A stretch of DNA of 64,000 nt from Erysipelotrichales bacterium (lineage in GTDB: Bacteria > Bacillota_I > Bacilli_A > Acholeplasmatales > WRBM01), in assembly GCA_009784525.1 (NCBI GenBank), contig WRBM01000007.1, positions 2,616-66,615 of the forward strand. The letters are read 5' to 3'. Numbering within the stretch: position 1 is the first letter of the stretch; every line of letters begins with the position of its first letter. A program made the translations under genes and the position numbers. Shown here piece by piece: positions 43,543 to 58,519 of the stretch. The notes beneath the pieces were generated by a model. That model saw only the letters and a list, made by a program, of their open reading frames with translations, was not told where the DNA came from and did no database searches.

Positions 43543-44751
43543 TTATAACCCCGCCGCTAATCCTGCGACAGCGGTAAATATTCTGGATATCCGATACCAA
43601 GTCGCAAAGTTTATTACACCAGTTTGCGGTAAATCAAAGACCCTTTGAAAAGTTTCAACTGCTCTACGTGTACTTTCGTTATACATGCCATCTGCTGGCG
43701 AGATAACAGGGATTGCTGGAAAATTACCTCTAATCCGATTTAATTCAATCTGAATTTTTTGAACATATTCCCCGCAATTGCCAACACTTAGATTATAGCC
43801 AGGAAAAGAAGAAGGAAGACCAACTACTTCATCCGCAACATGTAAATCAAGATTATTTGTATAGAAATGTCTTAGAATTTGAATAGCGGTAAAACCTTGG
43901 GCTGCCATATCTCTTGAACCCCACTGACTTAACCAGTTAGGATTATTAGTCCGTCTTCCATCATTATATTGTGCAAGAAATGGCTGAACCATGCCATTTA
44001 ACCGAATATAATAACGAAAATATTCATCTACGACATCAGAAATGCTTTTATAGATTGTACGATTATGAATATACTTTTGATCTAGTTGCGTTGTAGAAGT
44101 TATTGTGAAATTAAATCCTTGGCCTCTGTACCATTCTGTAAATATTCTGTTAAGGGTAAAAGATACAATCGCATGCACATTTGCTTTTAAGGATTCGCGC
44201 GGCCATGTACTATAAATTTCTGAACAAGCAACATTCTTGATATAATCAGTAAAAGAAACAATGTGATTAGGCGCATTGACATTAGATGGCGCTCCATCAT
44301 GGACAATTATAAATTCAGGAATAAGTACCATTGGTAACACAAAGGCCATAAAAGGCACATCTTCTTTGACTGGTTCTTCTGGAATTTTAGGCTCATCTGG
44401 TTCCCAAAGAATGTGATCAGGAAAATCAATAATTTCTGTAACTTTTTCGTGCAGAAAAACATTTTGGAAGGCAGTTTCACCCGCAAATATTTCTAAATTT
44501 AAGATTAATCCAGTTTTTAAGCCAGCTTTTGTTATTTCTAAATCATAGGTTGAATAAGGTCTTATTTCTTCTTGAAATGTCTGTGAAAGATCTGACTCTG
44601 GAGCCTCGAGTTCGATCATTGCTGTTTTTCCGCTTTCATCGGTAGTTAATACTTTTTCAAAATTTGCTCCAGTTATTTTCACAGAAGCGTTCTCTACTGG
44701 TGTACCTAAATCGTCAAAAAAGACATTTACGATTAAAAAACCTTTTGGCAT
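43543..44751 (-). CDS. SleC-like spore cortex-lytic enzyme with peptidoglycan-binding domain
   Basis: IPEFIIVHDG.P, DYIKNVACSEIYSTWP, LNRIFTEWY, WLSQWGS, FQRVFDLPQTG...ATWY; start 44751 after RBS gaggag. Confidence 0.85.
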   Translation of the reverse strand: MPKGFLIVNVFFDDLGTPVENASVKITGANFEKVLTTDESGKTAMIELEAPESDLSQTFQEEIRPYSTYDLEITKAGLKTGLILNLEIFAGETAFQNVFLHEKVTEIIDFPDHILWEPDEPKIPEEPVKEDVPFMAFVLPMVLIPEFIIVHDGAPSNVNAPNHIVSFTDYIKNVACSEIYSTWPRESLKANVHAIVSFTLNRIFTEWYRGQGFNFTITSTTQLDQKYIHNRTIYKSISDVVDEYFRYYIRLNGMVQPFLAQYNDGRRTNNPNWLSQWGSRDMAAQGFTAIQILRHFYTNNLDLHVADEVVGLPSSFPGYNLSVGNCGEYVQKIQIELNRIRGNFPAIPVISPADGMYNESTRRAVETFQRVFDLPQTGVINFATWYRISRIFTAVAGLAAGL

Positions 44752-44862
44752 ATTTTTACTCTCCTCACAAATTAGTATATTCAATCCAATTTAATGTGTA
44801 ACTTTTTTCTTAGGCGAAAATATAATATAATAGACAATCAAAAAGTGAAAAGAGGGATTTTG

Positions 44863-46635
44863 ATGAATTGTCAAGATGACAAAGAATGTCCTCTGAAAAT
44901 TCTTAAAAATAATTATGAAGAATATTTAAGAAGTGATATAAGAGAGGATTTAATTGAGTCTATATTATCAAAAAACAGTAGAAACCTTTCAGATACACCA
45001 GTTGGTCAAAGACCGACCCTAAGACAAGGTGATTCGGGACCATGGGTATCAGAACTACAAAAAGAGTTGAAACAGCTAACCTTTTATGATGGACCAATTA
45101 GTGGTACTTTTGGACCACAAACCGCAGCATCTGTCCGAGCTTTCCAACAAAATAACCGTCTTCAGGCTGATGGCGTAGTTGGTCGTAATACCTGGAATGC
45201 TTTAATTTTTTTGTATTCACCTTTAACTACATGTCCAGGCAATAATAAAATGGGCATGCCTTTAGTCGGAATTGTTATAGATGCCGGTCATGGAGGGCCT
45301 AATGATCCTGGAGCAGTTGGTAATGGAATCATCGAGAAAAACATGAATTTGGATATTTCTTTATATATGCAAGAAAGATTTAATGAATTAAACATTCCAA
45401 ATGCAATGACAAGAACAACTGATGAAGCGATTACGCCAGCAAACAGAGTTGCCCGGATGCGTAATGCTTTTGGTGCTCAAAGAGGGGTTATTCTAATCTC
45501 AAATCATATTAACGCTGGCGGCGGTAATGGCGCAGAAGTAATTTTTCCGTTACGCGATCAACCTACTTATTCGCAGATGATATTAGATGAAATCCGTAAA
45601 ACTGGACATCCGGTACGAAGAGTATTCCAAAAACCTTCAACTACAAATCCTAATTTAGATTTTTTCTTTATGCTTCGTGATACAGCTCCGATGCAAGCTG
45701 TTTTGATGGAATATGGGTTTTTAGATAATCCAGCAGATGCTCAGAGACTGAAAGATAACTGGAAAACTTTAGCCGAAGCGGTTATTATCGCAACCTGTGA
45801 ATTTACTGGCTGTCCATATAGTCCGCCTTATAGCGATGATTCGATTTATGTTGTGCAATCAGGAGATACTTTATGGAGCATTGCTCAAAGATTTAATACT
45901 ACTGTAGCTGATTTAATGCAAATTAATAATCTGCAATCACAATCTTTAAGAGTTGGTCAAATTCTAAAGATTCCTAATGCTGGCGGACCACCACCCCAAC
46001 AAACTTTTACTTATACAGTTGTGGCGGGAGACTCGTTATGGGCGATTGCTAATCGTTTTAATACATCGGTAGCGGTAATAAGAAGTTTAAATAATTTAAC
46101 GAGTGATGTTGTGTTTATTGGTCAAAGATTAAATATTCCAGGTAGTGAGCAAACACCAAAACCGCCAACCCAAGAAACATTTACCTATACGGTTGTAGCG
46201 GGAGATTCATTATGGTCAATTGCGAATAGATTTAATACAACTGTTGCGATTATCAGAAGTCTAAATAATTTGACAAATGATAATTTATTCGTCGGTCAAA
46301 GATTAACGATTCCAGGAAGCGAACAGACACCTCCGCCATCATTTACCTATACAGTTGTGGCAGGAGATTCATTGTGGTCGATAGCCAATAGGTTTAACAC
46401 GACTGTTGCGGAAATCAGGAGGATAAATAATTTAACAAATGACAACTTATTCTTAGGACAAAAATTAATTATTCCTGGTAATCAATCGGGGTATAGGATG
46501 TATACAGTTGTGGCAGGAGATTCATTGTGGTCAATAGCCAATCGTTTTAATAAAACTGTTGCGGAAATCCGAACTTTGAATAACTTGATGACAGATGCTT
46601 TGACTATTGGTCAGCAGCTAAAAATACCTCTTTAA
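44863..46635 (+). CDS. N-acetylmuramoyl-L-alanine amidase (PG-binding_1 + Amidase_3 + 5 LysM)
   Basis: LRQGDSG...DGVVGRNTW; IDAGHGG, SNHINAGG, EYGFLDN; five YxVxxGDxLWxIA repeats. Confidence 0.9.
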   Translation: MNCQDDKECPLKILKNNYEEYLRSDIREDLIESILSKNSRNLSDTPVGQRPTLRQGDSGPWVSELQKELKQLTFYDGPISGTFGPQTAASVRAFQQNNRLQADGVVGRNTWNALIFLYSPLTTCPGNNKMGMPLVGIVIDAGHGGPNDPGAVGNGIIEKNMNLDISLYMQERFNELNIPNAMTRTTDEAITPANRVARMRNAFGAQRGVILISNHINAGGGNGAEVIFPLRDQPTYSQMILDEIRKTGHPVRRVFQKPSTTNPNLDFFFMLRDTAPMQAVLMEYGFLDNPADAQRLKDNWKTLAEAVIIATCEFTGCPYSPPYSDDSIYVVQSGDTLWSIAQRFNTTVADLMQINNLQSQSLRVGQILKIPNAGGPPPQQTFTYTVVAGDSLWAIANRFNTSVAVIRSLNNLTSDVVFIGQRLNIPGSEQTPKPPTQETFTYTVVAGDSLWSIANRFNTTVAIIRSLNNLTNDNLFVGQRLTIPGSEQTPPPSFTYTVVAGDSLWSIANRFNTTVAEIRRINNLTNDNLFLGQKLIIPGNQSGYRMYTVVAGDSLWSIANRFNKTVAEIRTLNNLMTDALTIGQQLKIPL

Positions 46636-46706
46636 TGATTTAGGATTAAGAATTGTATTTTAAAATAAATAGTTTCTTGCTTGTGGCAAGAAACTTTTTC
46701 TTTTAT

Positions 46707-47167
46707 TCATTAGGGATTTATATTTTCATCTTATAACAATATTTATACTTAATATTATTTATACTACACACGCGCATATCCGTGAATTTTTCTCAAATTT
46801 ACCCTAAAACCATTGCTTTATTTGCTTTATCTAGAACATTTTTTTTAAGCTAAAAAAAATTAAAAATAATTCTTGTTTTTACTAGATTTTAGTGTTATAA
46901 TAACCTCATATACTTAGCAAGAAACGAGGTGAAAAATGAGCATCTTGGTAATAGAAATAATCGCTTGTTCCAGACTAAGACAGGAAAGATTGATTCAGAT
47001 ATAAATGCCAGTTTAAATATATGGCAAAAAGTAAACCCAAAGACGATGAAGTAATTCAGAGTTTGAGGAATAGCGGTCTAACAACACCCATAAGATTACA
47101 AGTAACACTGTAATTTCTTATAAAGATAGGCATCAGCCCCGTAACGAAAATTTTTTTCGTTTTGTTC
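46707..47167 (+). mobile_element. Non-autonomous tnpB-derived mini-element, copy A (IS200/IS605- or IS607-like)
   Basis: Aligns end to end with 57904-58370; decayed TnpB tail (LFQTKTG..DSDINASLNI..TPIRLQVTL); internal TTGTTT-17-TATAAT; terminal hairpin acgaaaa/ttttcgt. Confidence 0.8.
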
Positions 47168-47187
47168 ATTAAGGCTGATTTGCAGTA
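46908..47187 (+). ncRNA. Predicted omega-RNA-like transcript (scaffold plus flanking guide)
   Basis: Promoter 46873-46901; hairpin 47090-47121 covaries with copy B; boundaries inferred. Confidence 0.45.
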
Positions 47188-47212
47188 TAATATTATAAAT
47201 GGAGTGATTGAA

Positions 47213-48316
47213 ATGCAGGAAATACTTTCTAATTTTAATATCAAAGGTAAATTTATCTCTTGTGTTAATTTTGGTTTAGGGGATATTAATCTTTCTTATG
47301 AAGTTATTTTTAATGAAAACGGAACTCCTAAAAAATATTTATTACAAAGAATAAATCACAAGGTTTTTCGAAATATCGAGGGACTAATCAATAATATTTC
47401 CCTGGTCACAGAATATCTTAAAAATAAAATTCTTGAAGAAGGCGGAAACCCAACACGAGAAACTTTAACTTTAATCAAAACTAAAAATGGCCAGAACTTT
47501 TATTATGACGAAGAAGTAAAAAAATACTTTCGACTTTATCTTTTTATTGAAGAGGCGATTACTTTTGAAAAGACTGATGATTTAGCAGTCTTAAAAGAAG
47601 CTGGTCGGGCTATTAGTCATTTTGTAGAACAGTTAGCGGATTTTGACAATTCTCAGTTAATAAGCGTCATTCCAAACTTGCATAACTCAGTCAGGCATTA
47701 TGAAAATTTATTTGACTCTTTAAAGAAAGATAATTTTTATCGCAGTAAATTAATTGAACAGGAAGTAGCCTTTGTAAAAGAACGAGAAAGCGAACTTCAT
47801 GTTATTAAGAATCTAATTGCAAATCAAAAAATTCCTTTAAGAGTAACCCATAATGATACTAAACTTAATAACATTCTTTTTGAGTCAAAAAATAAAAAAG
47901 CAATTTGCATAATTGATTTAGATACTATTATGCCAGGAACAGTACTTTTTGATTATGGTGATGCAATTCGTTATGCAGCTTCGACTAGCTTAGAAGACGA
48001 AAAAGATTTATCTAAAGTTAAGTTAGATATCAAAAAATTTGAAGCTTTTACCGAAGGTTATTTAACTGCTGGACCACTTGTTTTAAATCAAACAGAATTA
48101 GACTATTTAGTATTTGCGGCTAAAATTGTGACATTAGAATGTGGAATTCGTTTTCTGACCGATTTTTTAAATGGTGATGTATATTTTAAAACTTCTAGGG
48201 CCCAACAGAATCTAGACCGGGCACGCACACAATTTAAATTAGTTGAAGAAATGGAAAAACATTATGAAACTTTATTGACAATTGTCCAAAAAATAAGAAT
48301 AGGAAAAGGTAAATAA
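47213..48316 (+). CDS. Aminoglycoside-phosphotransferase-fold kinase, N-acetylhexosamine 1-kinase-like
   Basis: YLLQRINH.VF, HNDTKLNN, IDLDTIMPG, DYGDAIR, GIRFLTDFLNGDVYF; start 47213 after ggag. Confidence 0.8.
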   Translation: MQEILSNFNIKGKFISCVNFGLGDINLSYEVIFNENGTPKKYLLQRINHKVFRNIEGLINNISLVTEYLKNKILEEGGNPTRETLTLIKTKNGQNFYYDEEVKKYFRLYLFIEEAITFEKTDDLAVLKEAGRAISHFVEQLADFDNSQLISVIPNLHNSVRHYENLFDSLKKDNFYRSKLIEQEVAFVKERESELHVIKNLIANQKIPLRVTHNDTKLNNILFESKNKKAICIIDLDTIMPGTVLFDYGDAIRYAASTSLEDEKDLSKVKLDIKKFEAFTEGYLTAGPLVLNQTELDYLVFAAKIVTLECGIRFLTDFLNGDVYFKTSRAQQNLDRARTQFKLVEEMEKHYETLLTIVQKIRIGKGK

Positions 48317-49801
48317 ATGGATACAAATTATCTGCTAAATGAATTGTTAAATTATGGAATTGATAATCTTGGTTTGGATAATTATGAAGTTTATTTTCGT
48401 ATAAATGAACTAAGGCGTTTGTTTAAACTAAACGAATTAAAATTTAGCCGAATCAAAAATAAAGAAGAATTACCAGATCTGTTATTGGAAAACATAACAA
48501 AAAGAGCGCTCGATTTAAAGATAGAAATGATTTCAGAAGCTCATTTTAAAGATCAACTTATGGGAATTGTTACACCATCACATGAAGCAGTTGTTCAAAA
48601 ATTCTTTACGTATTCTGATCCAAAGGAAGCGACTAACTATTTATATAACTTAGGAGTAAAAAATTATTATATTCAGAAAACGGCTATTGACCGCAATATT
48701 TTTTTTGGTAACGATAAAGTTGAATTCATAATTAATCTTAGCCGTCCGGAAAAAGATAACAAACAAACTGCTAAACTCTTAGAAACCAAAAAAATTGATT
48801 TTCCGGCTTGTATGTTATGTTTAGAGAATCTAGGATATGAAGGCAGAGATAATTATCCAGCTCGTTATTCAATTAGAATAATACCCTTAACTTTGGGTAA
48901 TGAACGTTGGTTTATGCAGTTTTCGCCTTATTCTTATTTTCCGGAACATGCAATTTTAATTAATGAAAAACATCAAAATATGGTTGTCAATGAGCAAACA
49001 TTTAGTAAGATGCTGGATTTTGTTAAAGTTCTTCCGCATTATTTTGTTGGCTCAAATGCTTCGTTACCAATTATCGGTGGCAGCATTTTAAATCACGAGC
49101 ATTATCAAGCGGGAAGCTATCACACACCGCTTCGCAAGAGTACCGAGAAAAGATTGCTTTTAAAAACCAATGAGGTTTTTCTTTATGAAATTGACTGGTT
49201 TTTAAGAAGCATCCGTCTTAAATCGGAAAATCCGGAAAAACTAAGAGCAATAGTAACAAAAGTTAATGATTTTTGGGAAAATTATAGCGATGAGACTGCA
49301 GGTATTAAAGCTAAAACTGGCACTACTCAGCATAGCGCTTTAACTCCTTTTTGTTATAAGGAAGGAAATTATTATGTCTTTGATTTAATATTCCGTAATA
49401 ACTATACTAATAAAAAATATCCCGATGGTGTTTTTCATGTTGCGCCAGAATATCAAAATATCAAGAAAGAAGCAATTGGTCTTTTGGAAGCCAGTGGTTA
49501 CTTTGTTTTACCAGGACGTTTAAAAGCAGAAATTGAAAGAATTGCTAAAGTATTAGTTGCTAATGAAGCAAAAATTAGTGCCGATGAAAGTCCTCTGAAC
49601 AAACATTATCGCTTAATTCAAGATGTTATAGATAAATTCGGTATTCCTGAAAATTTAGATGAAGCTGAAGAAAATATAAAAAATACTATTCTTGATACAT
49701 GCGCAAAAATTTTAGCAAGTGCCAGCTGTTTTAAAGCTACTATAGCTGGAGACAAAGCATTTGAAAAACTTATTAAAACTTTAGAAGGAGTATTGTTATA
49801 A
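48317..49801 (+). CDS. galT: UDP-glucose--hexose-1-phosphate uridylyltransferase (type 2)
   Basis: INLSRPEK, CMLCLEN.GY, QFSPY, GSNASLPIIGGSILNHEHYQ. Confidence 0.9.
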   Translation: MDTNYLLNELLNYGIDNLGLDNYEVYFRINELRRLFKLNELKFSRIKNKEELPDLLLENITKRALDLKIEMISEAHFKDQLMGIVTPSHEAVVQKFFTYSDPKEATNYLYNLGVKNYYIQKTAIDRNIFFGNDKVEFIINLSRPEKDNKQTAKLLETKKIDFPACMLCLENLGYEGRDNYPARYSIRIIPLTLGNERWFMQFSPYSYFPEHAILINEKHQNMVVNEQTFSKMLDFVKVLPHYFVGSNASLPIIGGSILNHEHYQAGSYHTPLRKSTEKRLLLKTNEVFLYEIDWFLRSIRLKSENPEKLRAIVTKVNDFWENYSDETAGIKAKTGTTQHSALTPFCYKEGNYYVFDLIFRNNYTNKKYPDGVFHVAPEYQNIKKEAIGLLEASGYFVLPGRLKAEIERIAKVLVANEAKISADESPLNKHYRLIQDVIDKFGIPENLDEAEENIKNTILDTCAKILASASCFKATIAGDKAFEKLIKTLEGVLL

Positions 49802-50818
49802 ATGAAGATATTAGTAACTGGTGGAGCTGGGTTTATAGGATCCCATACATGTGTAGAATTACTTAAAGATAAAGGTACAGAAATAGTTATTATTGATAAT
49901 TTAAGAAATTCTAAAAAAGAGGCAATTAATAGAATTGAGAAAATTAGTAGTCGCAAGGTTAAATTTTATCAAAATGATTTATTAGATAAAACGAGTCTAG
50001 AGTCAATATTCAGTACAGAAAATATTGACGCTGTCATCCATTTTGCGGCACTTAAAGCTGTTGGAGAATCAGTAAGTATGCCTTTAGAATATTACGAAAA
50101 CAATTTAAACAGCACAATCAATCTTTTAAATTGTATGAAGAAGTTTAATGTGAAAAAAATTGTTTTTTCTTCATCTGCGACTGTCTATGGTAATCCTGAA
50201 AGCAATCCGATTTCAGAAACTGCCAAACTTAATTGCACTAATCCTTATGGAAGAACAAAACTATTTAATGAGGAAATCCTTAAAGACTTTGCGACTGCGA
50301 ATAATGCTTTTGGGATAGTGCTTTTACGCTATTTTAATCCGATTGGAGCCCATGCTTCTGGACTAATCGGTGAAGATCCACAAGGCATTCCGAATAATTT
50401 AGTACCTTATATTAGTCAGGTGGCTTCAGGCAAACTAGAAACGTTAAAAGTTTTCGGTAACGATTATAACACAAAGGATGGTACAGGTGTTCGCGATTAT
50501 ATTCATGTTGTTGATTTAGCTCATGGTCATGTATTAGCCTTAAAAAAACTAGAAAGCTCTAAAGGTGTCTTAACTTATAATCTTGGGACAGGCAGAGGCT
50601 ATTCAGTCCTTGAAGTTCTAAAGGCTTTTGAAAATACTTTAGGAAAGCCAATTCCGCATGTCTTTTTTGAGAGACGACCAGGAGATATTGCTGTTTGTTA
50701 TGCTAATCCGGAAAAGGCAGAAAAAGAATTAGGCTTTAAGGCCGCATACGATTTAAATGTGATGGTTAAAGATGCCTGGAATTGGCAGAAGAACAATCCA
50801 GAAGGGTATAAAAACTAA
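49802..50818 (+). CDS. galE: UDP-glucose 4-epimerase
   Basis: GGAGFIGSH, KAVGES, YGRTK, LRYFNP. Confidence 0.96.
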   Translation: MKILVTGGAGFIGSHTCVELLKDKGTEIVIIDNLRNSKKEAINRIEKISSRKVKFYQNDLLDKTSLESIFSTENIDAVIHFAALKAVGESVSMPLEYYENNLNSTINLLNCMKKFNVKKIVFSSSATVYGNPESNPISETAKLNCTNPYGRTKLFNEEILKDFATANNAFGIVLLRYFNPIGAHASGLIGEDPQGIPNNLVPYISQVASGKLETLKVFGNDYNTKDGTGVRDYIHVVDLAHGHVLALKKLESSKGVLTYNLGTGRGYSVLEVLKAFENTLGKPIPHVFFERRPGDIAVCYANPEKAEKELGFKAAYDLNVMVKDAWNWQKNNPEGYKN

Positions 50819-50832
50819 AGGAGTTATAGATT

Positions 50833-53118
50833 ATGCTGCAATTAAAAGGAATCAAAAAGAATTATAAAGTTGGCGATAGTTATGTTAAAGCTCTTAAGGG
50901 TGTAGATATTGAATTCAGAAAAAATGAATTTGTTTCAATCTTAGGACCTTCTGGCTGTGGTAAAACAACAATGCTTAACTTAATTGGTGGGTTAGACAAA
51001 TATACGGAAGGCGATTTATTAGTTAATGGTAAATCAACAAGAATGTTTAAAGATAAAGAATGGGACTATTATCGTAATAGTACAATTGGTTTCGTCTTTC
51101 AAAGCTATAATTTAATCTCTCACCAAACAGTCTTAGATAATGTCAGTATTGCGATGACTTTATCAGGGGTTGGCATTGAAGAAAGAAAACAAAGAGCTAC
51201 AGAAGCTTTGAATAAAGTTGGTCTACATGATCAATTACATAAAAAGCCTAATCAGCTTTCTGGGGGTCAGATGCAAAGAGTTGCAATCGCCAGAGCTTTA
51301 GTGAATGGGCCAAAAATTTTATTAGCTGATGAGCCTACTGGAGCCCTTGATAGTTCTACTAGTCTTCAGGTAATGAATATATTAAAAGAAATCAGTAAAG
51401 AAATGCTGGTTATTATGGTTACACACAATAATGACCTAGCAGAAAGATATAGCGATCGTATCGTTAGAATCTTAGATGGTGAAATTATTGATGATACTAA
51501 ACCTGTCTTTAATGAAGCTATCAAAGATGAAGGTGAAAAATTAGTTAACAGAAAAACTTCAATGTCTTATCTGACAGCTTTAAAACTCAGTTTCAAGAAC
51601 TTAATGACAAAAATGAAAAGAACGATTATTACGGCTTTAGCAGGAAGTATCGGAATAATCGGGATTGCTTTGGTTTTAGCGATTAGAAGTGGGATGACAG
51701 ATTTTGTCACGGATATGCAAAGTGACTCTTTAGCTGGCTTTCCAATCACAATTGACCGAACGCCTATCTCAATCCAAAGACCAGCACAAGGAAATTGGAC
51801 AGCCTTTCCAACGAGGGAAGAGCTTTATTTCATGATGAATCCGACTCCGCGTACAAATATCTTCAGCGATGAACTTTTTGCGCATATTGAAAATATGAAT
51901 TCAGATTGGTATAATGCGATTAGTTTTACCCAAGGAATTAATATGAATGTAACGGCCAGAGGCCATGATGGAGTATTCCGCCGAATTTCTACAGCTACTG
52001 GAAGCGGGTTCTCAAATGCTTTGTTTCAGGAAATGCCTAATAATAACGATTTTATTCTCAATCAATATGATATATTAAACGGGCGTTTGCCAGAAGAAGC
52101 CAATGAAATGGTTTTGATTGTCGACCGCTACAATCGTATAGAAGAAAGACTTTTAACGGCACTTGGTTTTGATCGTCAAGATCAAACAACTTTTTCGTTT
52201 AATGATTTTATGGGTCATTCGATAAGAGTAATACATAATGATGATTTCTATGCTCCAAATGGCGATTTATTCAATTCGAGTAATGTCTTTAATCAAGCAA
52301 TGTGGGATAGTTCAAGAAGTCATGAAATTACCGTTGTAGGTATTATCAGAGTAAAAGAATCCGCATCTTCCGAAATGCTTTCCAGAGGTTTTGGCTTTAC
52401 TAGAGCCTTAACAGAAAAAGTGTTAGCTGAGGCAAAAACCTCTCAAATTGTTGAAGCGCAACTAACACGACCAACTGTTGATATTTTTACAGGCAATCCT
52501 TTGCCGGCTGCCAGTTTTCAAAATCGCATGCAACAACTTGGTGGTGATCATACACCAATTGGCATCCAGATTTTTCCGCGCTCATTTGAAGCTAAAGAAG
52601 AAATTAAGCTTCATTTAGATGCTTTTAATGAAATGCAAACTTTTGAAGAGCTTCGAATTGTTTATACCGATTTAGCCGAAATGATTACTAATATGGTCTC
52701 GACTTTAATTGATACAATTGCCATTGTTTTAAGTGCTTTTGCTTTATTATCTTTAGTTGTATCTTCAATTATGATTGGAATCATTACTTATGTTTCGGTT
52801 ATCGAAAGGACAAAAGAAATAGGAATACTAAGAGCAATTGGGGCTCGTAAGAAAGACATTTCGCGAGTCTTTAATGCCGAAACAATAATAATTGGTTTTG
52901 TGGCAGGCTCTTTAGGAATAGCGATTGCTTTAATTCTTTCCATTCCGATTAATATCATTGTACATAGTTTATCAGGGGTCAGAAATATTTCTTCATTACC
53001 AATCTGGCAAGCGATTGTTCTGGTTTTAGTAAGCATGACTCTAACATTCTCATCAGGCTTAATTCCATCAAGAATTGCAGCAAAAAAAGATCCGGTTGTA
53101 GCATTAAGAACCGAATAA
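50833..53118 (+). CDS. MacB-type fused ABC ATPase/permease
   Basis: GPSGCGKT, LSGGQ, DEPTG, FtsX-type ERTKEIGILRAIGA. Confidence 0.9.
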   Translation: MLQLKGIKKNYKVGDSYVKALKGVDIEFRKNEFVSILGPSGCGKTTMLNLIGGLDKYTEGDLLVNGKSTRMFKDKEWDYYRNSTIGFVFQSYNLISHQTVLDNVSIAMTLSGVGIEERKQRATEALNKVGLHDQLHKKPNQLSGGQMQRVAIARALVNGPKILLADEPTGALDSSTSLQVMNILKEISKEMLVIMVTHNNDLAERYSDRIVRILDGEIIDDTKPVFNEAIKDEGEKLVNRKTSMSYLTALKLSFKNLMTKMKRTIITALAGSIGIIGIALVLAIRSGMTDFVTDMQSDSLAGFPITIDRTPISIQRPAQGNWTAFPTREELYFMMNPTPRTNIFSDELFAHIENMNSDWYNAISFTQGINMNVTARGHDGVFRRISTATGSGFSNALFQEMPNNNDFILNQYDILNGRLPEEANEMVLIVDRYNRIEERLLTALGFDRQDQTTFSFNDFMGHSIRVIHNDDFYAPNGDLFNSSNVFNQAMWDSSRSHEITVVGIIRVKESASSEMLSRGFGFTRALTEKVLAEAKTSQIVEAQLTRPTVDIFTGNPLPAASFQNRMQQLGGDHTPIGIQIFPRSFEAKEEIKLHLDAFNEMQTFEELRIVYTDLAEMITNMVSTLIDTIAIVLSAFALLSLVVSSIMIGIITYVSVIERTKEIGILRAIGARKKDISRVFNAETIIIGFVAGSLGIAIALILSIPINIIVHSLSGVRNISSLPIWQAIVLVLVSMTLTFSSGLIPSRIAAKKDPVVALRTE

Positions 53119-53284
53119 TATAATTATGGCATGTCTCAAACCTGAGATGTGCTTTTATTAAGGATAATAAATAAAGGCCAAAATCAAATTAAAAAAAGTA
53201 AGCACAGAATATAATTTTATTCAAGATTAATTACTTAAACAAAAGGCATTCCAAAAAAGGATGCCTTTTGTTATATTAGTTGGC

Positions 53285-54583
53285 TTAAATACAAAAAGTT
53301 GCATATAATGGAATTGATTTAATATTATTCTCAAAGCCAAAATTTTTCAAAGAAATTCTTATGGAATAACTTGGATGATATTTATCAATAAATATTTTCA
53401 GACTTCTTGATTTTGTTCTTATTCCTGCTTTTACTTCGACAGCAATAATTTCATTGCCTTTTTGCAATACAAAATCTATTTCTGCTAAAGCATCGCTAGT
53501 CCAGTAGAAAAGGCCATACTGCTTAGCCGCAAAAGTTTGTGCAACAAAATTTTCAGCTAATGCACCAAGGAAAATATTGTCAATTTCTCCAGCAGAAAGA
53601 ATTACTTGTGAAGATATTCCGCTTTTCATAGTTAAAAGGCCCACATCGCCCATGTATAGTTTAAAGTTTGACAAATCCCTGTAAACAGAAATAGGCATGG
53701 AGCCAGTTTCTATACGTTCGCACTTTAATACGATATTCGCAAAACGTAACCAATCAATAGAAGAACCAAAAATATTAGCTGTGCCACCTTTTTGTGCAAG
53801 TTTATATTGGAACTTTCTATTATCTTTCGCAAGTTGTACAGGAATGGAATCATAAGCTGAAAGAATTTTAACACTTTCGCTTTTAGTGGCATACTTTGAC
53901 ATATCCGCAATATAATCGTTAACAATATTTCTTTGCGCTTCTGGCACAAGTACGAAGCTCTTAGTATCGACATACTCGAGAACAGCTTTAGGCATACCTC
54001 CAATAATTAAATATATTTTATATAAGTCGAGGGCATGCAAGTGAAGGGCTTCTGGAAGAGGCTTATTTGTATGATAAGAGTGTTCTATTTCCTCACAAAG
54101 TTTCTCTTCATTTAATGCCCACAAAAATTCCTCAAAATCAATAGGAAAAAGTGTCATTGACTTTACTTTTCCGACTGGAAAAGAATATTTTTCTCTATTT
54201 ATTGCAACGCCTAATAAACTTCCAGCGCAAGCAATGTGATATTCTGGGATGTTTTCATTAAAATACTTGAGCGAAGTTAATGCTCTTTCACAACTTTGAA
54301 TTTCATCAAAAATCACAAGTGTATCTCCTGGAAGAATTCTTTCATTACTAAGTGTCTCTAAGTAGCGGATAAGACGTATAGGATCAATATTTTCGGTAAA
54401 GTAAGAACTAATATTTTTATTGATTTCGAAATTTATATAAACTACATTTTTATAATATTTTTTTCCGAATTCCCTTAAAATGTAAGTTTTTCCGACTTGT
54501 CTTGCGCCATATAATAATAACGGCATTCGATTCAAACTTTGTTCTTTCCAGGCAACAAGTTTATCTGTAATCCTGCGTCTCAT
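53285..54583 (-). CDS. AAA+ ATPase (AAA_14 + DUF4143)
   Basis: GARQVGKT, FDEIQ, GGMP, ENFVAQ, EIDF...VEVKAG. Confidence 0.88.
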   Translation of the reverse strand: MRRRITDKLVAWKEQSLNRMPLLLYGARQVGKTYILREFGKKYYKNVVYINFEINKNISSYFTENIDPIRLIRYLETLSNERILPGDTLVIFDEIQSCERALTSLKYFNENIPEYHIACAGSLLGVAINREKYSFPVGKVKSMTLFPIDFEEFLWALNEEKLCEEIEHSYHTNKPLPEALHLHALDLYKIYLIIGGMPKAVLEYVDTKSFVLVPEAQRNIVNDYIADMSKYATKSESVKILSAYDSIPVQLAKDNRKFQYKLAQKGGTANIFGSSIDWLRFANIVLKCERIETGSMPISVYRDLSNFKLYMGDVGLLTMKSGISSQVILSAGEIDNIFLGALAENFVAQTFAAKQYGLFYWTSDALAEIDFVLQKGNEIIAVEVKAGIRTKSRSLKIFIDKYHPSYSIRISLKNFGFENNIKSIPLYATFCI

Positions 54584-54631
54584 AAAATCACCCTATTAAT
54601 TTATCGATTATTTATAAATAAATTATATTTT

Positions 54632-54695
54632 ATTTTAACACTTAGTAACAATTAAGTCAATAAAAATCAGAATATTTTGATTTTTATTGACTTAA
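54632..54695 (-). promoter_or_regulatory. Sigma-A promoter whose -35 lies in a 44-bp palindrome
   Basis: TTGACT-17-TAAAAT with TGn (minus); 18-bp perfect arms 54652-54669 / 54678-54695. Confidence 0.65.
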
Positions 54696-54752
54696 ATTTC
54701 AAAATTATGCCTTTTTATTGAAAAAAGAGCTAACTGAAAATCATAATAAAAT

Positions 54753-55041
54753 TTAAGATTTCAATAGCTTTTTAAGGACATTTATTTGTTTTATCGCATT
54801 GTGAGAAGTAAGAGGTGCATTATCCATTATTAAAAGATATTTAGAGTTGTAATCTTTTATAGCATTTATATGGGCCAGCTTAAGTTTCAAGGTTTTTCCA
54901 TCAGCATCTATAATAGTGGAAGAAACCTGAAAGTATTCGTCTCCTTCATTACTTATTGCGATAAATTAAGCTTCGTTTTTTTCAATTTTGCTAACCTCTG
55001 CGTAAAAGTTCCAGAAAAACAATGTTTTCAAGAATATGAGG
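54753..55041 (-). pseudogene. C-terminal remnant of a third DUF4143 ATPase
   Basis: HILENIVFLELLRRG...YFQVS...IKQINVL with frameshifts. Confidence 0.7.
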
Positions 55042-55181
55042 TTGTAGTAAAAACAAGGATTAATTTAAACTTTTTATTTGTTAAGAAAACATTCTAGATA
55101 AAGCAAATAAAACTATCGTTTTAAAGTTAAATTTGAGCAAAATTCTTGCATACGCTGGATGAAAATAGAAATCCCTAATGA
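55030..55181 (-). mobile_element. Left-end part of the mini-element (copy C), truncated
   Basis: Reverse complement tttat|tcattagggatttctattttcatc...tttatttgctttatctagaa...cttgtttttacta..cctcatattctt. Confidence 0.75.
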
Positions 55182-55227
55182 ATAAAAAATGATATCCCCT
55201 TAGTTTTAGAGAATATCATTTTATAAT

Positions 55228-57864
55228 TTAATTACATTCGATTTTGTTTCTTGTAAAAAACTTTTGAATTTCAACTGTTATTAGTTGTAGAGAAGCTAAA
55301 CCAATAATAATTAACCAATGCCAGATGCTTAAATTAACAACACTAAATACATTAGCAATCGGTGGAATTAAGGCTACCGCAAGTGTGATTAGTATTGAGA
55401 ATAAAGCACTATAGAAAATTGCTTTATTTGATAAGAAGCCAATTTTAAAGATTGATTTCTGGCTTCTGATATTAAAGATATTTATAACGGAAGCCCATGA
55501 TAAAACAATAAATGCCATTGATATTCCGACTTCACGGCTTGGCTCAATGCTTTGAACAATCTCAAATTTATAACCGATAAAGAAAGCCAGTAGCGTTAGT
55601 ATTGAAAAAGTTAGTGAACGTTGAAATATTTTAAAACCTAAACCATTAGCGAAAATACTGGTATTTTTAGGTAGAGGCTTACATTTCATAATTCCTTCTT
55701 CAGGTTTTTCAAAACTAATAAAGAATCCTGGAATTCCATCTGAAACAACATTAATAAGTAGAATTTGCACCGCAAGAATCGGAGCGCCCCAACCAAGGAT
55801 AACTCCAGTTAACATTATAAAAATCTGCGCAAAGTTAACACTTAACAAAAAGTAAACAGTTTTTCGGATATTAGCATAAGAAGTACGACCTTCCGCAATT
55901 GCATCAACGATTGTCGCAAAGTTATCATCAGTTATAATCATATCCGCTGCGTTTTTTGTAACTTCGGTACCAGTTATACCCATCGCTACACCAACATCAG
56001 CTGCTTTTAAGGCTGGAGCATCGTTGACTCCGTCGCCTGTCATGGCGATAACTTCACCATGTTTTTCCCAGGCTTTTACGATATTTATCTTATCTTCTGG
56101 GCTAACCCGTGCATAAACGGATATTTCACGAACTTGCTCGAATAATTCAGTTTCAGTCATATTACTTAAATCAGAACCAGTAAGAGCCCGATCGCCATCT
56201 TGAAAAATACCAATTTCTTTAGCTATCGCTTTTGCAGTAACAACATGATCACCTGTAATCATTACCGTTCTGATGCCGGCTTCTTTAGCTAACTGAACAG
56301 CCATTTTACTTTCTGGCCGCGGAGGATCAATCATTCCGACTAAACCCATGAAAATTAAATCTTTTTCTAAAGCTTCAACACTTAAATCAGTTGGAAGAGT
56401 ATCATATTTTTTATATCCGATGGAAATAACACGTAAAGCCTGTTCACCAAATGAATCGTGAATTTCTGTTGCTTTTTTTCTTAAATCAGCTGTCCAGCTA
56501 ACGGGAATGCGATCAAAGGCACCTTTAGTAACTACAAGATAACCATCATCTACATGATGAACAGTTGTCATTCTTTTACGAGTTGAATCGAATGGTAACT
56601 CATGAACTCTTGGATATTGACGTTCTGCATCAACTCTTGTTAAGCCTTTATCATGGAGCAAGCGAATAATTGCCAGTTCAGTAGGATCACCAACAACTTT
56701 TTCTTCATCACCATTAATTTCGATTGTGGCATTACTACAAGATGCAAGAAGTTCAATTAAATGAATTTCTTTAACATCAAATTCTTCAGAGGCAGCTTTT
56801 GGATTCATGTCAACATGCCAAATTTGCTGGATACGCATGATGTTTTGTGTCAATGTACCAGTCTTGTCAGAACAGATTACAGAAGTATTACCAACAGTTT
56901 CTACAGCAGGAATTTTTCTGATAATCGTATTTTTCTTAACCATCTTATGAACACCATGAGATAAGATCATTGTTACGATAATCGGCAATGTCTCAGGAAC
57001 GGCCGCAACACCTAAGGAAACGCCTACTAATAACATTTCTGGTATTGAACCATCATGAACTAGCGTTCCGATTAAGAAAATTATGAAACCGGCCACTAAT
57101 GCTACAATGCTGAGTCTTTTCGCTAATTGACTTAGCCGGATTTGTAATGGTGTTTTAATTTTGCTAGTACTGTTAAGAAGTCCAGCAATTTTACCCATTT
57201 CTGTATTCATAGCAGTTTCCACAACAATAGCTTTAGCCCGGCCACCAGTGACTAGACAACCAGAATAAATCATATTAATCCTATCGCCTAATGTCACGTT
57301 TTCAGCTATCTCAGCATTTGGATCTTTTTCAATTGGCGCACTTTCGCCAGTTAAACTCGATTCAACAACCTGTAAGCTGCTTGCTTCAATTAGTCTGGCA
57401 TCGGCACTAATCATATCACCAGCATTAACTTCAATAATATCGCCTGGAACTAATTGATTGGCATCAATTTTTTGTTTTGTTCCGTCGCGAAGAACTGTCG
57501 TTTGGCTAGAATTTAGCTTTTTTAAAGCATCAAGTGCTTTTTCTGCTTTATTTTCCTGATAAATCCCTAAAATTATATTTATAACAACAATTGACAAAAT
57601 AACAAAAACTTTAGGCCAACCTTCACCTGTAGTTATTGCCATATAAGCGGCAATTGAGGCAGCTATTATTAAAATTATAGCAGTTATTTCCATTAAATGA
57701 TGTAAAATCTTTTGGAAAATATTTTCCTTTTTGGCTTCCTCAAATTCATTTAATCCGTATTTTTTTATTCTGTTTTCAACGTCGGTTTTACTGAGTCCTT
57801 TTTCGGCGTTACTTTCTAGTTTTTCTAGAACTTCCTCTTTAGTTTCTTTTACCCACAACATCAA
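55228..57864 (-). CDS. P2A-type cation (Ca2+-like) P-type ATPase
   Basis: LTGES, AVPETLP, CSDKTGTLT, GDPTE, TGDH, GDGVND, QILLIN..SDG. Confidence 0.92.
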   Translation of the reverse strand: MMLWVKETKEEVLEKLESNAEKGLSKTDVENRIKKYGLNEFEEAKKENIFQKILHHLMEITAIILIIAASIAAYMAITTGEGWPKVFVILSIVVINIILGIYQENKAEKALDALKKLNSSQTTVLRDGTKQKIDANQLVPGDIIEVNAGDMISADARLIEASSLQVVESSLTGESAPIEKDPNAEIAENVTLGDRINMIYSGCLVTGGRAKAIVVETAMNTEMGKIAGLLNSTSKIKTPLQIRLSQLAKRLSIVALVAGFIIFLIGTLVHDGSIPEMLLVGVSLGVAAVPETLPIIVTMILSHGVHKMVKKNTIIRKIPAVETVGNTSVICSDKTGTLTQNIMRIQQIWHVDMNPKAASEEFDVKEIHLIELLASCSNATIEINGDEEKVVGDPTELAIIRLLHDKGLTRVDAERQYPRVHELPFDSTRKRMTTVHHVDDGYLVVTKGAFDRIPVSWTADLRKKATEIHDSFGEQALRVISIGYKKYDTLPTDLSVEALEKDLIFMGLVGMIDPPRPESKMAVQLAKEAGIRTVMITGDHVVTAKAIAKEIGIFQDGDRALTGSDLSNMTETELFEQVREISVYARVSPEDKINIVKAWEKHGEVIAMTGDGVNDAPALKAADVGVAMGITGTEVTKNAADMIITDDNFATIVDAIAEGRTSYANIRKTVYFLLSVNFAQIFIMLTGVILGWGAPILAVQILLINVVSDGIPGFFISFEKPEEGIMKCKPLPKNTSIFANGLGFKIFQRSLTFSILTLLAFFIGYKFEIVQSIEPSREVGISMAFIVLSWASVINIFNIRSQKSIFKIGFLSNKAIFYSALFSILITLAVALIPPIANVFSVVNLSIWHWLIIIGLASLQLITVEIQKFFTRNKIECN

Positions 57865-57903
57865 ATTCAGCTCCTTTCTTTAGTTTACTAAAATTTTTTT
57901 TAA

Positions 57904-58370
57904 TCATTAGGATTTTCTATTTTCATCTTATAACAAATTTATACTTTAATATTATCTATGTTATACACGCGTATATATGAGAGAATTTTTTTCTCAAATT
58001 TAACCCTAAAACCATAGTTTTATTTGCTTTATCTATAACATTTTTTCAAGCTGAAAAAAATTAAAAATAATTCTTGTTTTTACCAGACTTTAGTGTTATA
58101 ATAAGCTCATATTCTTAACAAGAATCGAGGTGAAAGATGAGCATCTTGGTAAGAGGAATAATCGCTTATTCCAGACTAAGACAGGAAACTTATTAATTCA
58201 GATATTAATGCCAGTTTAAATATAATGGTAAAAAGTAAACCCAAAGACGATGAAGTAATTCAAAGTTTGAGGAATAGCGGTCTAACAACACCCATAAGAT
58301 TATAGGTAACACCGTAATTTCTTATAAAGATAGGCATTAGCCCGTAACGAAATTTATTTTCGTTTTGTTC
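57904..58370 (+). mobile_element. Non-autonomous tnpB-derived mini-element, copy B
   Basis: HLGKRNNRLFQTKTG/KLINSDINASLNIMVKSKPKDDEVIQSLRNSGLTTPIRL*; promoter TTGTTT 58074-17-TATAAT 58097. Confidence 0.82.
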
Positions 58371-58390
58371 CTTGCTAAAAAACCATAACA

Positions 58391-58419
58391 ATTATACCAT
58401 TTGATAATTAAAATGTAAA
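58391..58419 (-). promoter_or_regulatory. Probable native promoter of the P2A ATPase, displaced by element B
   Basis: TTTACA-17-TATAAT with TGn on minus strand. Confidence 0.65.
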
Positions 58420-58519
58420 TAAAAACCATCAGAAAGCGACTGGCATAATCTGATATTTATTTTCCGCATTACCAAAGAAAAAGAGGAAATATTGAGATTC
58501 TACAGAAAAAAATCTTCGA

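Follow-up and report, generated by a model that had tools for sequence, protein, structure and literature searches.

What remains of a tnpB element once its nuclease gene is gone, and does the remnant still serve a purpose? The question is raised by two copies of one gene-less element of about 465 bp in the 64,000-nucleotide stretch of DNA analysed here (the window), copy A at 46707-47167 and copy B at 57904-58370. Both lie on the forward strand, as do all window features given with coordinates below. An earlier note on the window had described them as a mini tnpB derivative, and our comparison bears this out: the nuclease reading frame is gone, and the promoter, a module made of the tnpB 3' end and the right end, and both element ends are present. 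Its positions were also right, with TCATTAGG opening the copies at 46707 and 57904. They share a closing sequence (…TTTTCGTTTTGTTC) and end on the right at 47167 and 58370 (…CGTTTTGTTC), beyond which they diverge completely; the two copies are 89% identical over 470 nt. Sequence comparison identifies copy A (46707-47167) as a PATE/MITE-like deletion derivative of a tnpB-only insertion sequence (IS), hereafter a mini.

The window corresponds to contig C7 of a 1.96-Mb assembly of 83 contigs that is rated 81% complete. Searched with copy A, this assembly gave 46 matches in the genome search and 65 HSPs by BLAST. The same junction between left end and 3' end was present at at least 13 loci with differing flanks. 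Nine of these 13 minis are complete from end to end (two on C7 and one each on C10, C4, C20, C2, C48, C35, and C26) and are 87-91% identical to copy A; three are cut by a contig end (C15, C21, and C47), and the one on C34 has suffered a further loss within its left end. Aligned with 60-nt flanks, the nine complete minis break off sharply on the right (…TTTTGTTC), and their left junction is T-rich. The ends are asymmetric, the start of the left end being unrelated to the end of the right end, and the flanks carry no target duplication. Subterminal hairpins in the right end and a T-rich motif 5' of the left end match the end layout of IS200/IS605-type elements, the exact cleavage point being placed no more closely than about 5 nt. 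The elements are thus PATE/MITE-like in being short, lacking an intact ORF, keeping both parental ends, and occupying 13 loci at unrelated sites.

No copy was found among 40 related genomes; matches of 34-60 nt (E 1e-5 to 1e-3) in seven of them were considered as element copies and set aside as AT-rich chance similarity. An Rfam scan of window positions 44000-60000 returned no family at E up to 1, and viral contigs gave no match for the scaffold core. A pattern scan of metagenomes recovered 17 loci; almost all of them come from this population or one nearly identical to it, and L063 alone is usefully diverged. The flanks, along with many variant copies of the element, are represented in contigs from four DNA runs that carry the label termite gut metagenome. 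None of the RNA runs searched contained the locus. In two metagenome runs, the summed depth over 46714-47157 was 90-1300 vs about 10-20 on the flanks, a figure that is not a copy number.

Many of the BLAST matches, located at contig ends, are restricted to the left ~240 nt of the query or to its right ~190-230 nt; these we take as the termini of full-length elements at which the assembly broke. C25 carries the left end and then an open tnpB start of 318 codons that extends as far as the contig does. C18 and C72 carry open tnpB ends of 191 and 150 codons, each followed by a right end. Analysis by tblastn placed intact tnpB starts, 98-100% identical to one another, at four contig ends (C16, C25, C32, and C33), together with several tnpB gene ends and decayed tnpB copies on C35, C5, and C20. 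The genome-wide search for an intact tnpA/tnpB parent, which the earlier note had proposed, thus yielded one half of the pair: an intact-looking cognate tnpB is present in several copies, split over contig ends, but no TnpA was found in this 81%-complete assembly.

Comparison with these full-length copies reveals how the mini arose. In the full-length element, the sequence at the start codon is …AAAATGAGTTTCC and that ~55 codons ahead of the stop is …GCTGATGAGTATCTTGG, so that ATGAGT occurs both at the tnpB start (C25) and within GATGAGTAT of the tnpB 3' part (C18). At the corresponding point the minis read …AAAATGAG(T/C)ATCTTGG. Since ATGAGT lies at both edges of the missing segment and the mini junction is their fusion, a single deletion between the two 6-nt microhomologies removed nearly all of tnpB and generated the mini. 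What was kept is the left end, the tnpB promoter, and some 230 nt with homology to the 3' end of tnpB plus the right end. Metagenome contigs with a full-length tnpB branch from the mini sequence exactly at 46936, the start codon in copy A. The anatomy of the minis and their single origin with later spread are established with high confidence.

The junction region of copy A (46926-46941) holds the tnpB ribosome-binding site GAGGTG (46926-46931), the ATG (46936, and 58137 in copy B), and the microhomology junction ATGAG(C/T). It had been suggested that the ribosome-binding site is joined to the last ~55 decayed TnpB codons. GAGGTG and the decayed codons are indeed there, but the two are not joined in frame: the ATG that remains is in another frame than the codons of the TnpB C-terminus, and 3 of 10 minis have lost it. 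The tnpB remnant itself is decayed, as had been noted; in either window copy, tblastn follows it only by using two frames, and a stop interrupts copy B as well. The out-of-frame ATG and its loss in three minis, the frameshifts in both window copies, and the stop in copy B lead us to regard the mini as non-coding, and no SDINASLNI peptide would be made from the retained ATG.

Other derivatives of the same family arose by deletions with different junctions (C31:1-503, C3:76412-76672, C34:18505-18855, and C44:5500-5756). On C31 and C34, the right-end module survives through to the right end, starting at query position 257 or 158; on C3 it survives only from query position 321, inside the helix called S1 below. 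The C44 derivative is made up of pieces from the left end and the middle of the element and stops short of the right end.

We then compared the parts of the element with one another. The first part of the left end (46707-46786) is variable and contains short palindromes, read by eye, that differ between copies; among the nine complete minis, the mean pairwise difference was 0.255 over the first ~95 nt (46707-46800). A conserved left-end block follows at 46787-46872, with differences of 0.03-0.09 over 46787-46845. This stretch of the block is conserved to the same degree as the promoter. The tnpB-derived promoter (46873-46901) shows the lowest mean difference, 0.049, and consists of a -35 TTGTTT, a 17-nt spacer, and a TG-extended -10 TGTTATAAT. 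The corresponding region of the full-length copy on C25 reads TGCTATAAT. In copy A, the -35 lies at 46873-46878 and TG-n-TATAAT at 46893-46901; the copy B equivalents are at 58074-58079 and 58094-58102, within a promoter spanning 58074-58102. The TGn-extended promoter that the earlier note had seen is thus present in both copies, and TTGTTT-17-TGTTATAAT is invariant in all nine complete minis. A consensus promoter scanner did not call it, since its -35 fits at only three of six positions. The 3' part had likewise been called well conserved, and differences of 0.079 in the scaffold core vs 0.255 at the start of the left end agree with this; the values were also 0.079 in helix S4 and 0.107 in the right end. 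In this descriptive comparison, the uneven conservation, highest in promoter and core, fits the pattern that selection for scaffold expression would leave.

In ISDra2-type systems, the TnpB omega-RNA has a scaffold that overlaps the tnpB 3' end and the right end, its guide is the flank of the element, and the target motif is the TAM. The mini carries a module with this placement at 46941-47167. It comprises the last ~55 decayed tnpB codons and the right end, is about 90% identical to the 3' end and right end of the full-length copies on C18 and C72, and stops at the sharp boundary next to the candidate guide. No sequence or Rfam similarity links it to the ISDra2-type omega-RNA, and the helices of the mini are specific to this family.

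To this module the earlier note had assigned a hairpin at 47090-47121 (58294-58325 in copy B) with one compensatory A-U to G-C change between two copies. We gathered 28 distinct versions of the module from genome and metagenome loci and aligned the 22 that reach the right end with MAFFT (alignment A2); an ungapped alignment of the core (A4) has 117 columns and 22 sequences. Helices S1 to S4 were named from single-sequence folds. Across S1-S4, 97.7% of cells form standard pairs vs 94.8% in shuffled alignments (0 of 500 shuffles reach this value), in a test whose structure came from the same sequences, all of them from one genome and closely related metagenome contigs, that is, one population. 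Six pairs are changed on both sides (reached by 5 of 500 shuffles), as are 15 cells (0 of 500). The covariation score was 0.141 vs 0.091 in shuffles (0 of 500), and controls with slid partners gave at most 0.067.

The individual helices contribute unequally. S1 (GCCA/UGGC, 47007-47025) has one C-G to U-A double change and one G-U pair, with unpaired cells in three rows. S2 (CC..AGAC..UGAA / UUCA..GUUU..GG, 47037-47068) covaries in A4: pair 37-59 is GU in 13 sequences, GC in 6, and AU in 2, and pair 39-57 has one double change and four broken pairs. Overall, broken pairs occur in four rows in S2 and three in S1. S3 (GGU/ACC, 47075-47088) is paired in 100% of cells (UA 19, UG 1, CG 1). The nested hairpin S4 (47090-47121) lies over the parental tnpB stop codon; 3 of its 12 pairs are changed on both sides and 98% of its cells are paired. 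S4 is the hairpin that had been proposed, and the change reported for it recurs in the larger set, where pair 97-105 is AU in 14 sequences, GU in 5, and GC in 2. The strongest double changes, at pairs 86-117 and 89-114 (A-U to U-A and A-U to C-G), are in the outer stem of S4; each probably reflects a single event, since the double changes are common to one subfamily. The many G-U pairs in the core helices fit a structure that would act as RNA rather than DNA.

Increasing the number of copies from 2 to 22 therefore supported the core helices S1-S4, within one population and by few independent events, but gave no significant covariation in the terminal hairpins of the right end. These subterminal hairpins, S5 (GGC-AUCA-GCC) and S6 (ACGAAAA-…-UUUUCGU), were placed at 47129-47160 by folding. 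Among 18 mini-type ends, their covariation was not above that of shuffles (122 of 500), and S5 has only 3 bp in 8 of 16 distinct mini-type ends. Full-length copies have other stems in the same places (GAAGCG/UGCUUC and AAGCG/CGCUU). S5 and S6 probably double as DNA hairpins recognised by the transposase.

Fold z-scores of the window copies are modest (-2.86 and -1.66). RNAalifold on A2 returned 33 pairs, 4 of them with double changes, and missed helices where MAFFT gaps were misplaced. It also predicted a long-range pairing of GGCAAAAAGUAAA with the tip of the right end, which the data neither support nor refute because every column involved is invariant. Among 185,579 species genomes, the nearest relatives of the parent TnpB are only 25-36% identical, a distance that rules out alignment of their scaffold at the DNA level. 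In two of them, L071 (a Tissierella MAG, 35% identical) and L073 (Oceanobacillus manasiensis, 29%), a nested hairpin likewise runs across the stop codon and is followed by a terminal hairpin (z -3.4 and -4.1). This is independent support for the structure and suggests a scaffold plan kept across the clade. The terminal hairpin CCCACUU…AAGUGG is common to L071:1046-1146 and L073:3436-3530.

Do these features mean that the minis are still in use? They could instead be inert relics that spread once and are now decaying, with the conservation left by uneven mutation or by gene conversion from full-length copies. The minis differ by about 10% among themselves vs 98-100% identity among the full-length gene starts, so they may be old and no longer active. 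Decay is also visible in the frameshifts, the ATG missing from 3 of 10 minis, the S1 and S2 pairs broken in several minis, and the shortened S5 in half of the distinct ends (8 of 16). Moreover, no empty-site joint across copy A occurs among the termite gut metagenome contigs placed on it. Against this reading, conservation is strongly uneven and peaks exactly at promoter and scaffold; helix cells remain 97.7% paired, with compensatory and G-U changes; and several independent deletion derivatives (C31, C3, and C34) retain the core proximal to the right end. We regard inert relics as an unlikely explanation, though one that retains appreciable weight.

Attention then falls on the sequences that flank the element. 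Copy A abuts a segment (46671-46706) in which a terminator caller placed the intrinsic terminator of the upstream host gene (stem 46671-46695), followed by a T-rich tract (…CTTTTTCTTTTAT) directly next to the left end. A TTTTT(A/G/C)T motif precedes the left end at 20 of 20 junctions, with the cut resolved no better than ~5 nt, and this T-rich tract is the probable TAM or target motif. The elements lie directly 3' of terminator-like hairpins and T tracts. In a comparison of folding with 3000 random genomic 40-mers, the 40 nt upstream rank within the lowest 5% at 11 of the 20 left junctions (Mann-Whitney p 0.0008).

On the right, the sharp boundary defines candidate guide flanks of 20 nt at 47168-47187 for copy A (ATTAAGGCTGATTTGCAGTA) and 58371-58390 for copy B (CTTGCTAAAAAACCATAACA), the same two guides that had been put forward before. 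Their use as guides is inferred, following what the available text of PMC10055086 says of TnpB systems. The assembly contains 42 right ends whose flank extends for 20 nt or more (24 of mini type, 13 of full-length type, and 5 others). For none of these 42 did the 16-nt guide have an exact second site in the assembly; there were 19 sites with one mismatch, none preceded by a T-rich motif. Each guide thus matches its own flank only, as a homing model expects.

A different use of the element would be as a mobile promoter or regulatory cassette, in which transcription from the strong retained promoter would leave the element at its right end and enter the neighbouring host gene, and selection would act on the expression of that gene. 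The promoter is the best-conserved part, and copy A ends 47 nt ahead of the start codon of a co-oriented ORF (47214-48316). No intrinsic terminator was called inside the element or between copy A and the ORF start at 47214. The copy A promoter reads toward this ORF, and read-through is possible. However, among ten copies with a scorable neighbour, the orientation relative to the downstream gene is the same in six and opposite in four, which disfavours a general role as promoter donor; copy B faces a convergent gene, and a folded scaffold core would be unnecessary for such a role. We consider this explanation improbable.

The earlier note had left open whether the partner in trans would be a TnpB or a dead TnpB. 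The two open pieces of the parent TnpB (L035:907-1860 on C25 and L036:1114-1689 on C18) match the Pfam families OrfB_IS605 (PF01385, 70.5 bits) and Cas12f1-like_TNB (PF07282, 32.7 bits). A profile of six sequences, the two parent pieces and four distant relatives, matches solved Cas12f/TnpB chains in the PDB with a best E of 2e-10; phmmer against the PDB with the C-terminal piece alone gave no match. In the profile alignment, AIDLG provides the RuvC-I Asp and NSDIN the RuvC-III Asp. Where Cas12f has the canonical RuvC-II Glu (MEDL), the parent TnpB has a Gly (IGYN), and a downstream Glu, in NEAYTS, is conserved in all five sequences that cover it. The C4 zinc ribbon region contains a single Cys, hence no C4 zinc finger.

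This combination has been described before. The portions of PMC10691335 available to us report large TnpB clades with Gly in place of the RuvC-II Glu, whose role presumably passes to another Glu, as well as branches that lost the C4 zinc finger; TnpBs with such a rearranged RuvC-II are presumed there to be active. By alignment only, the parent shows the features that those portions give for RIIr-type TnpB, namely Gly at RuvC-II, an alternative Glu, and an NADXN-like RuvC-III. Judged by these residues, the parent TnpB is probably an active nuclease of the rearranged type. The option of a dead TnpB is not supported, as the RuvC-I and RuvC-III Asp are kept and the RuvC-II Gly with a downstream Glu is the rearranged-type pattern. 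That the minis are guides for a nuclease-dead, TldR-like TnpB repressing host genes at second sites is very improbable: dead relatives acting as regulators do appear in the accessible part of PMC10691335, but the sole tnpB family found next to these ends keeps both catalytic Asp residues and the alternative Glu, 0 of 42 guides have an exact second site, and the 19 one-mismatch sites lack a T-rich motif before them.

The source of transposition was sought in the same assembly. The Y1 (HUH) transposase family PF01797 had no match in it, an assembly 81% complete in which repeats are broken at contig ends. Six matches to the resolvase domain were found, five of them in proteins of 258-639 aa; the sole small one (188 aa, C52) was considered as an IS607 TnpA and rejected, as its catalytic domain is N-terminal and the adjoining ORFs are not tnpB-like by eye. 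A third repeat family is represented only by stubs of 82 nt, all 100% identical, at the ends of five contigs (C1, C19, C26, C43, and C44). Its last ~46 nt are in common with the mini-type right end, and the sequence upstream differs. No extension beyond the 82-nt stubs was found in the assembly or in the searched contigs, viral ones included, the latter giving no match at all. This family may be the autonomous, transposase-bearing partner.

Taken together, we favour, with a probability of roughly 0.6, the reading that the minis are non-autonomous, protein-less, PATE/MITE-like derivatives of a tnpB-only IS200/IS605-type IS, whose omega-RNA is used in trans. A transposase provided in trans would have spread the deletion product to at least 13 sites. 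The retained promoter would transcribe the scaffold directly and on for ~20 nt into the right flank, giving a guide particular to each insertion site. TnpB from full-length copies would bind the mini RNA in trans. When a mini is excised, this TnpB would cut the rejoined empty site, recognised by TAM and guide, and recombinational repair off the sister chromosome would restore the mini. Transcription, TnpB loading, and cleavage or homing of the minis are steps that we infer. That the mini RNA functions in trans appears somewhat more probable than the contrary on the sequence evidence.

Gene-less elements of this kind have precedents among palindrome-associated transposable elements (PATEs). Meers et al. 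(2023; PMC10055086), in the text available, describe PATE-like elements without genes, including in Geobacillus stearothermophilus, and already state the concept that TnpB uses PATE omega-RNA in trans. Those PATEs, of the IS1341 type or IS200/IS605, are short and protein-less like the minis. Unlike the PATEs in that text, the minis keep the whole tnpB promoter and 5' UTR, fused straight to the scaffold by the microhomology deletion; their parent TnpB is of the type with Gly at RuvC-II and a single Cys, without a C4 zinc finger; and their host is an uncultured lineage, with no copies among the 40 related genomes. The PATE of Halanaerobium hydrogeniformans, as presented in the part of PMC7290912 available, has nearly the same anatomy, with part of the left end (28 nt), the last 58 nt of tnpB, and the entire right end. 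It is a single copy of 271 nt whose 28 nt of left end include no promoter, vs at least 13 copies of ~465 nt here with ~235 nt of left end including the promoter. In Halobacterium salinarum, according to the available text of PMC4615843, PATE-derived RNA is expressed, VNG_R0052 and the sotRNAs being RNA from a fused left end-right end element at the 3' end of an IS1341-type tnpB. That system is archaeal and its expression was measured, whereas the mini RNA is predicted from sequence. The idea of a guide-only mini is therefore sound but already published for PATEs, as far as the text of PMC10055086 at hand goes. Particular to the minis are the defined microhomology deletion, the retention of the whole promoter, the copy number, and the unusual TnpB clade.

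A further reading can be formulated, in which the minis are not relics but selected, guide-only hyperparasites: some 13 or more cassettes would each make their own site-specific omega-RNA from the captured tnpB promoter, borrow TnpA and the zinc-finger-less, RuvC-II-rearranged TnpB from other elements, and compete with the full-length copies for the nuclease. We put this forward tentatively and think it doubtful. If true, it would provide a natural, dispersed, promoter-driven set of guides served by one trans-acting TnpB.

Because the principle is already in the literature, the minis are of value for annotation and for testing and bring no new concept. They are a clean natural case of TnpB modularity, in which promoter, scaffold, and ends outlast the nuclease. 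For an unstudied TnpB clade that has Gly at RuvC-II and lacks a C4 zinc finger, they delimit the likely scaffold (at most ~230 nt) and a probable T-rich TAM. If the mini RNA is made and used in trans, the minis would be elements that carry only a guide and exploit their parents' homing apparatus.
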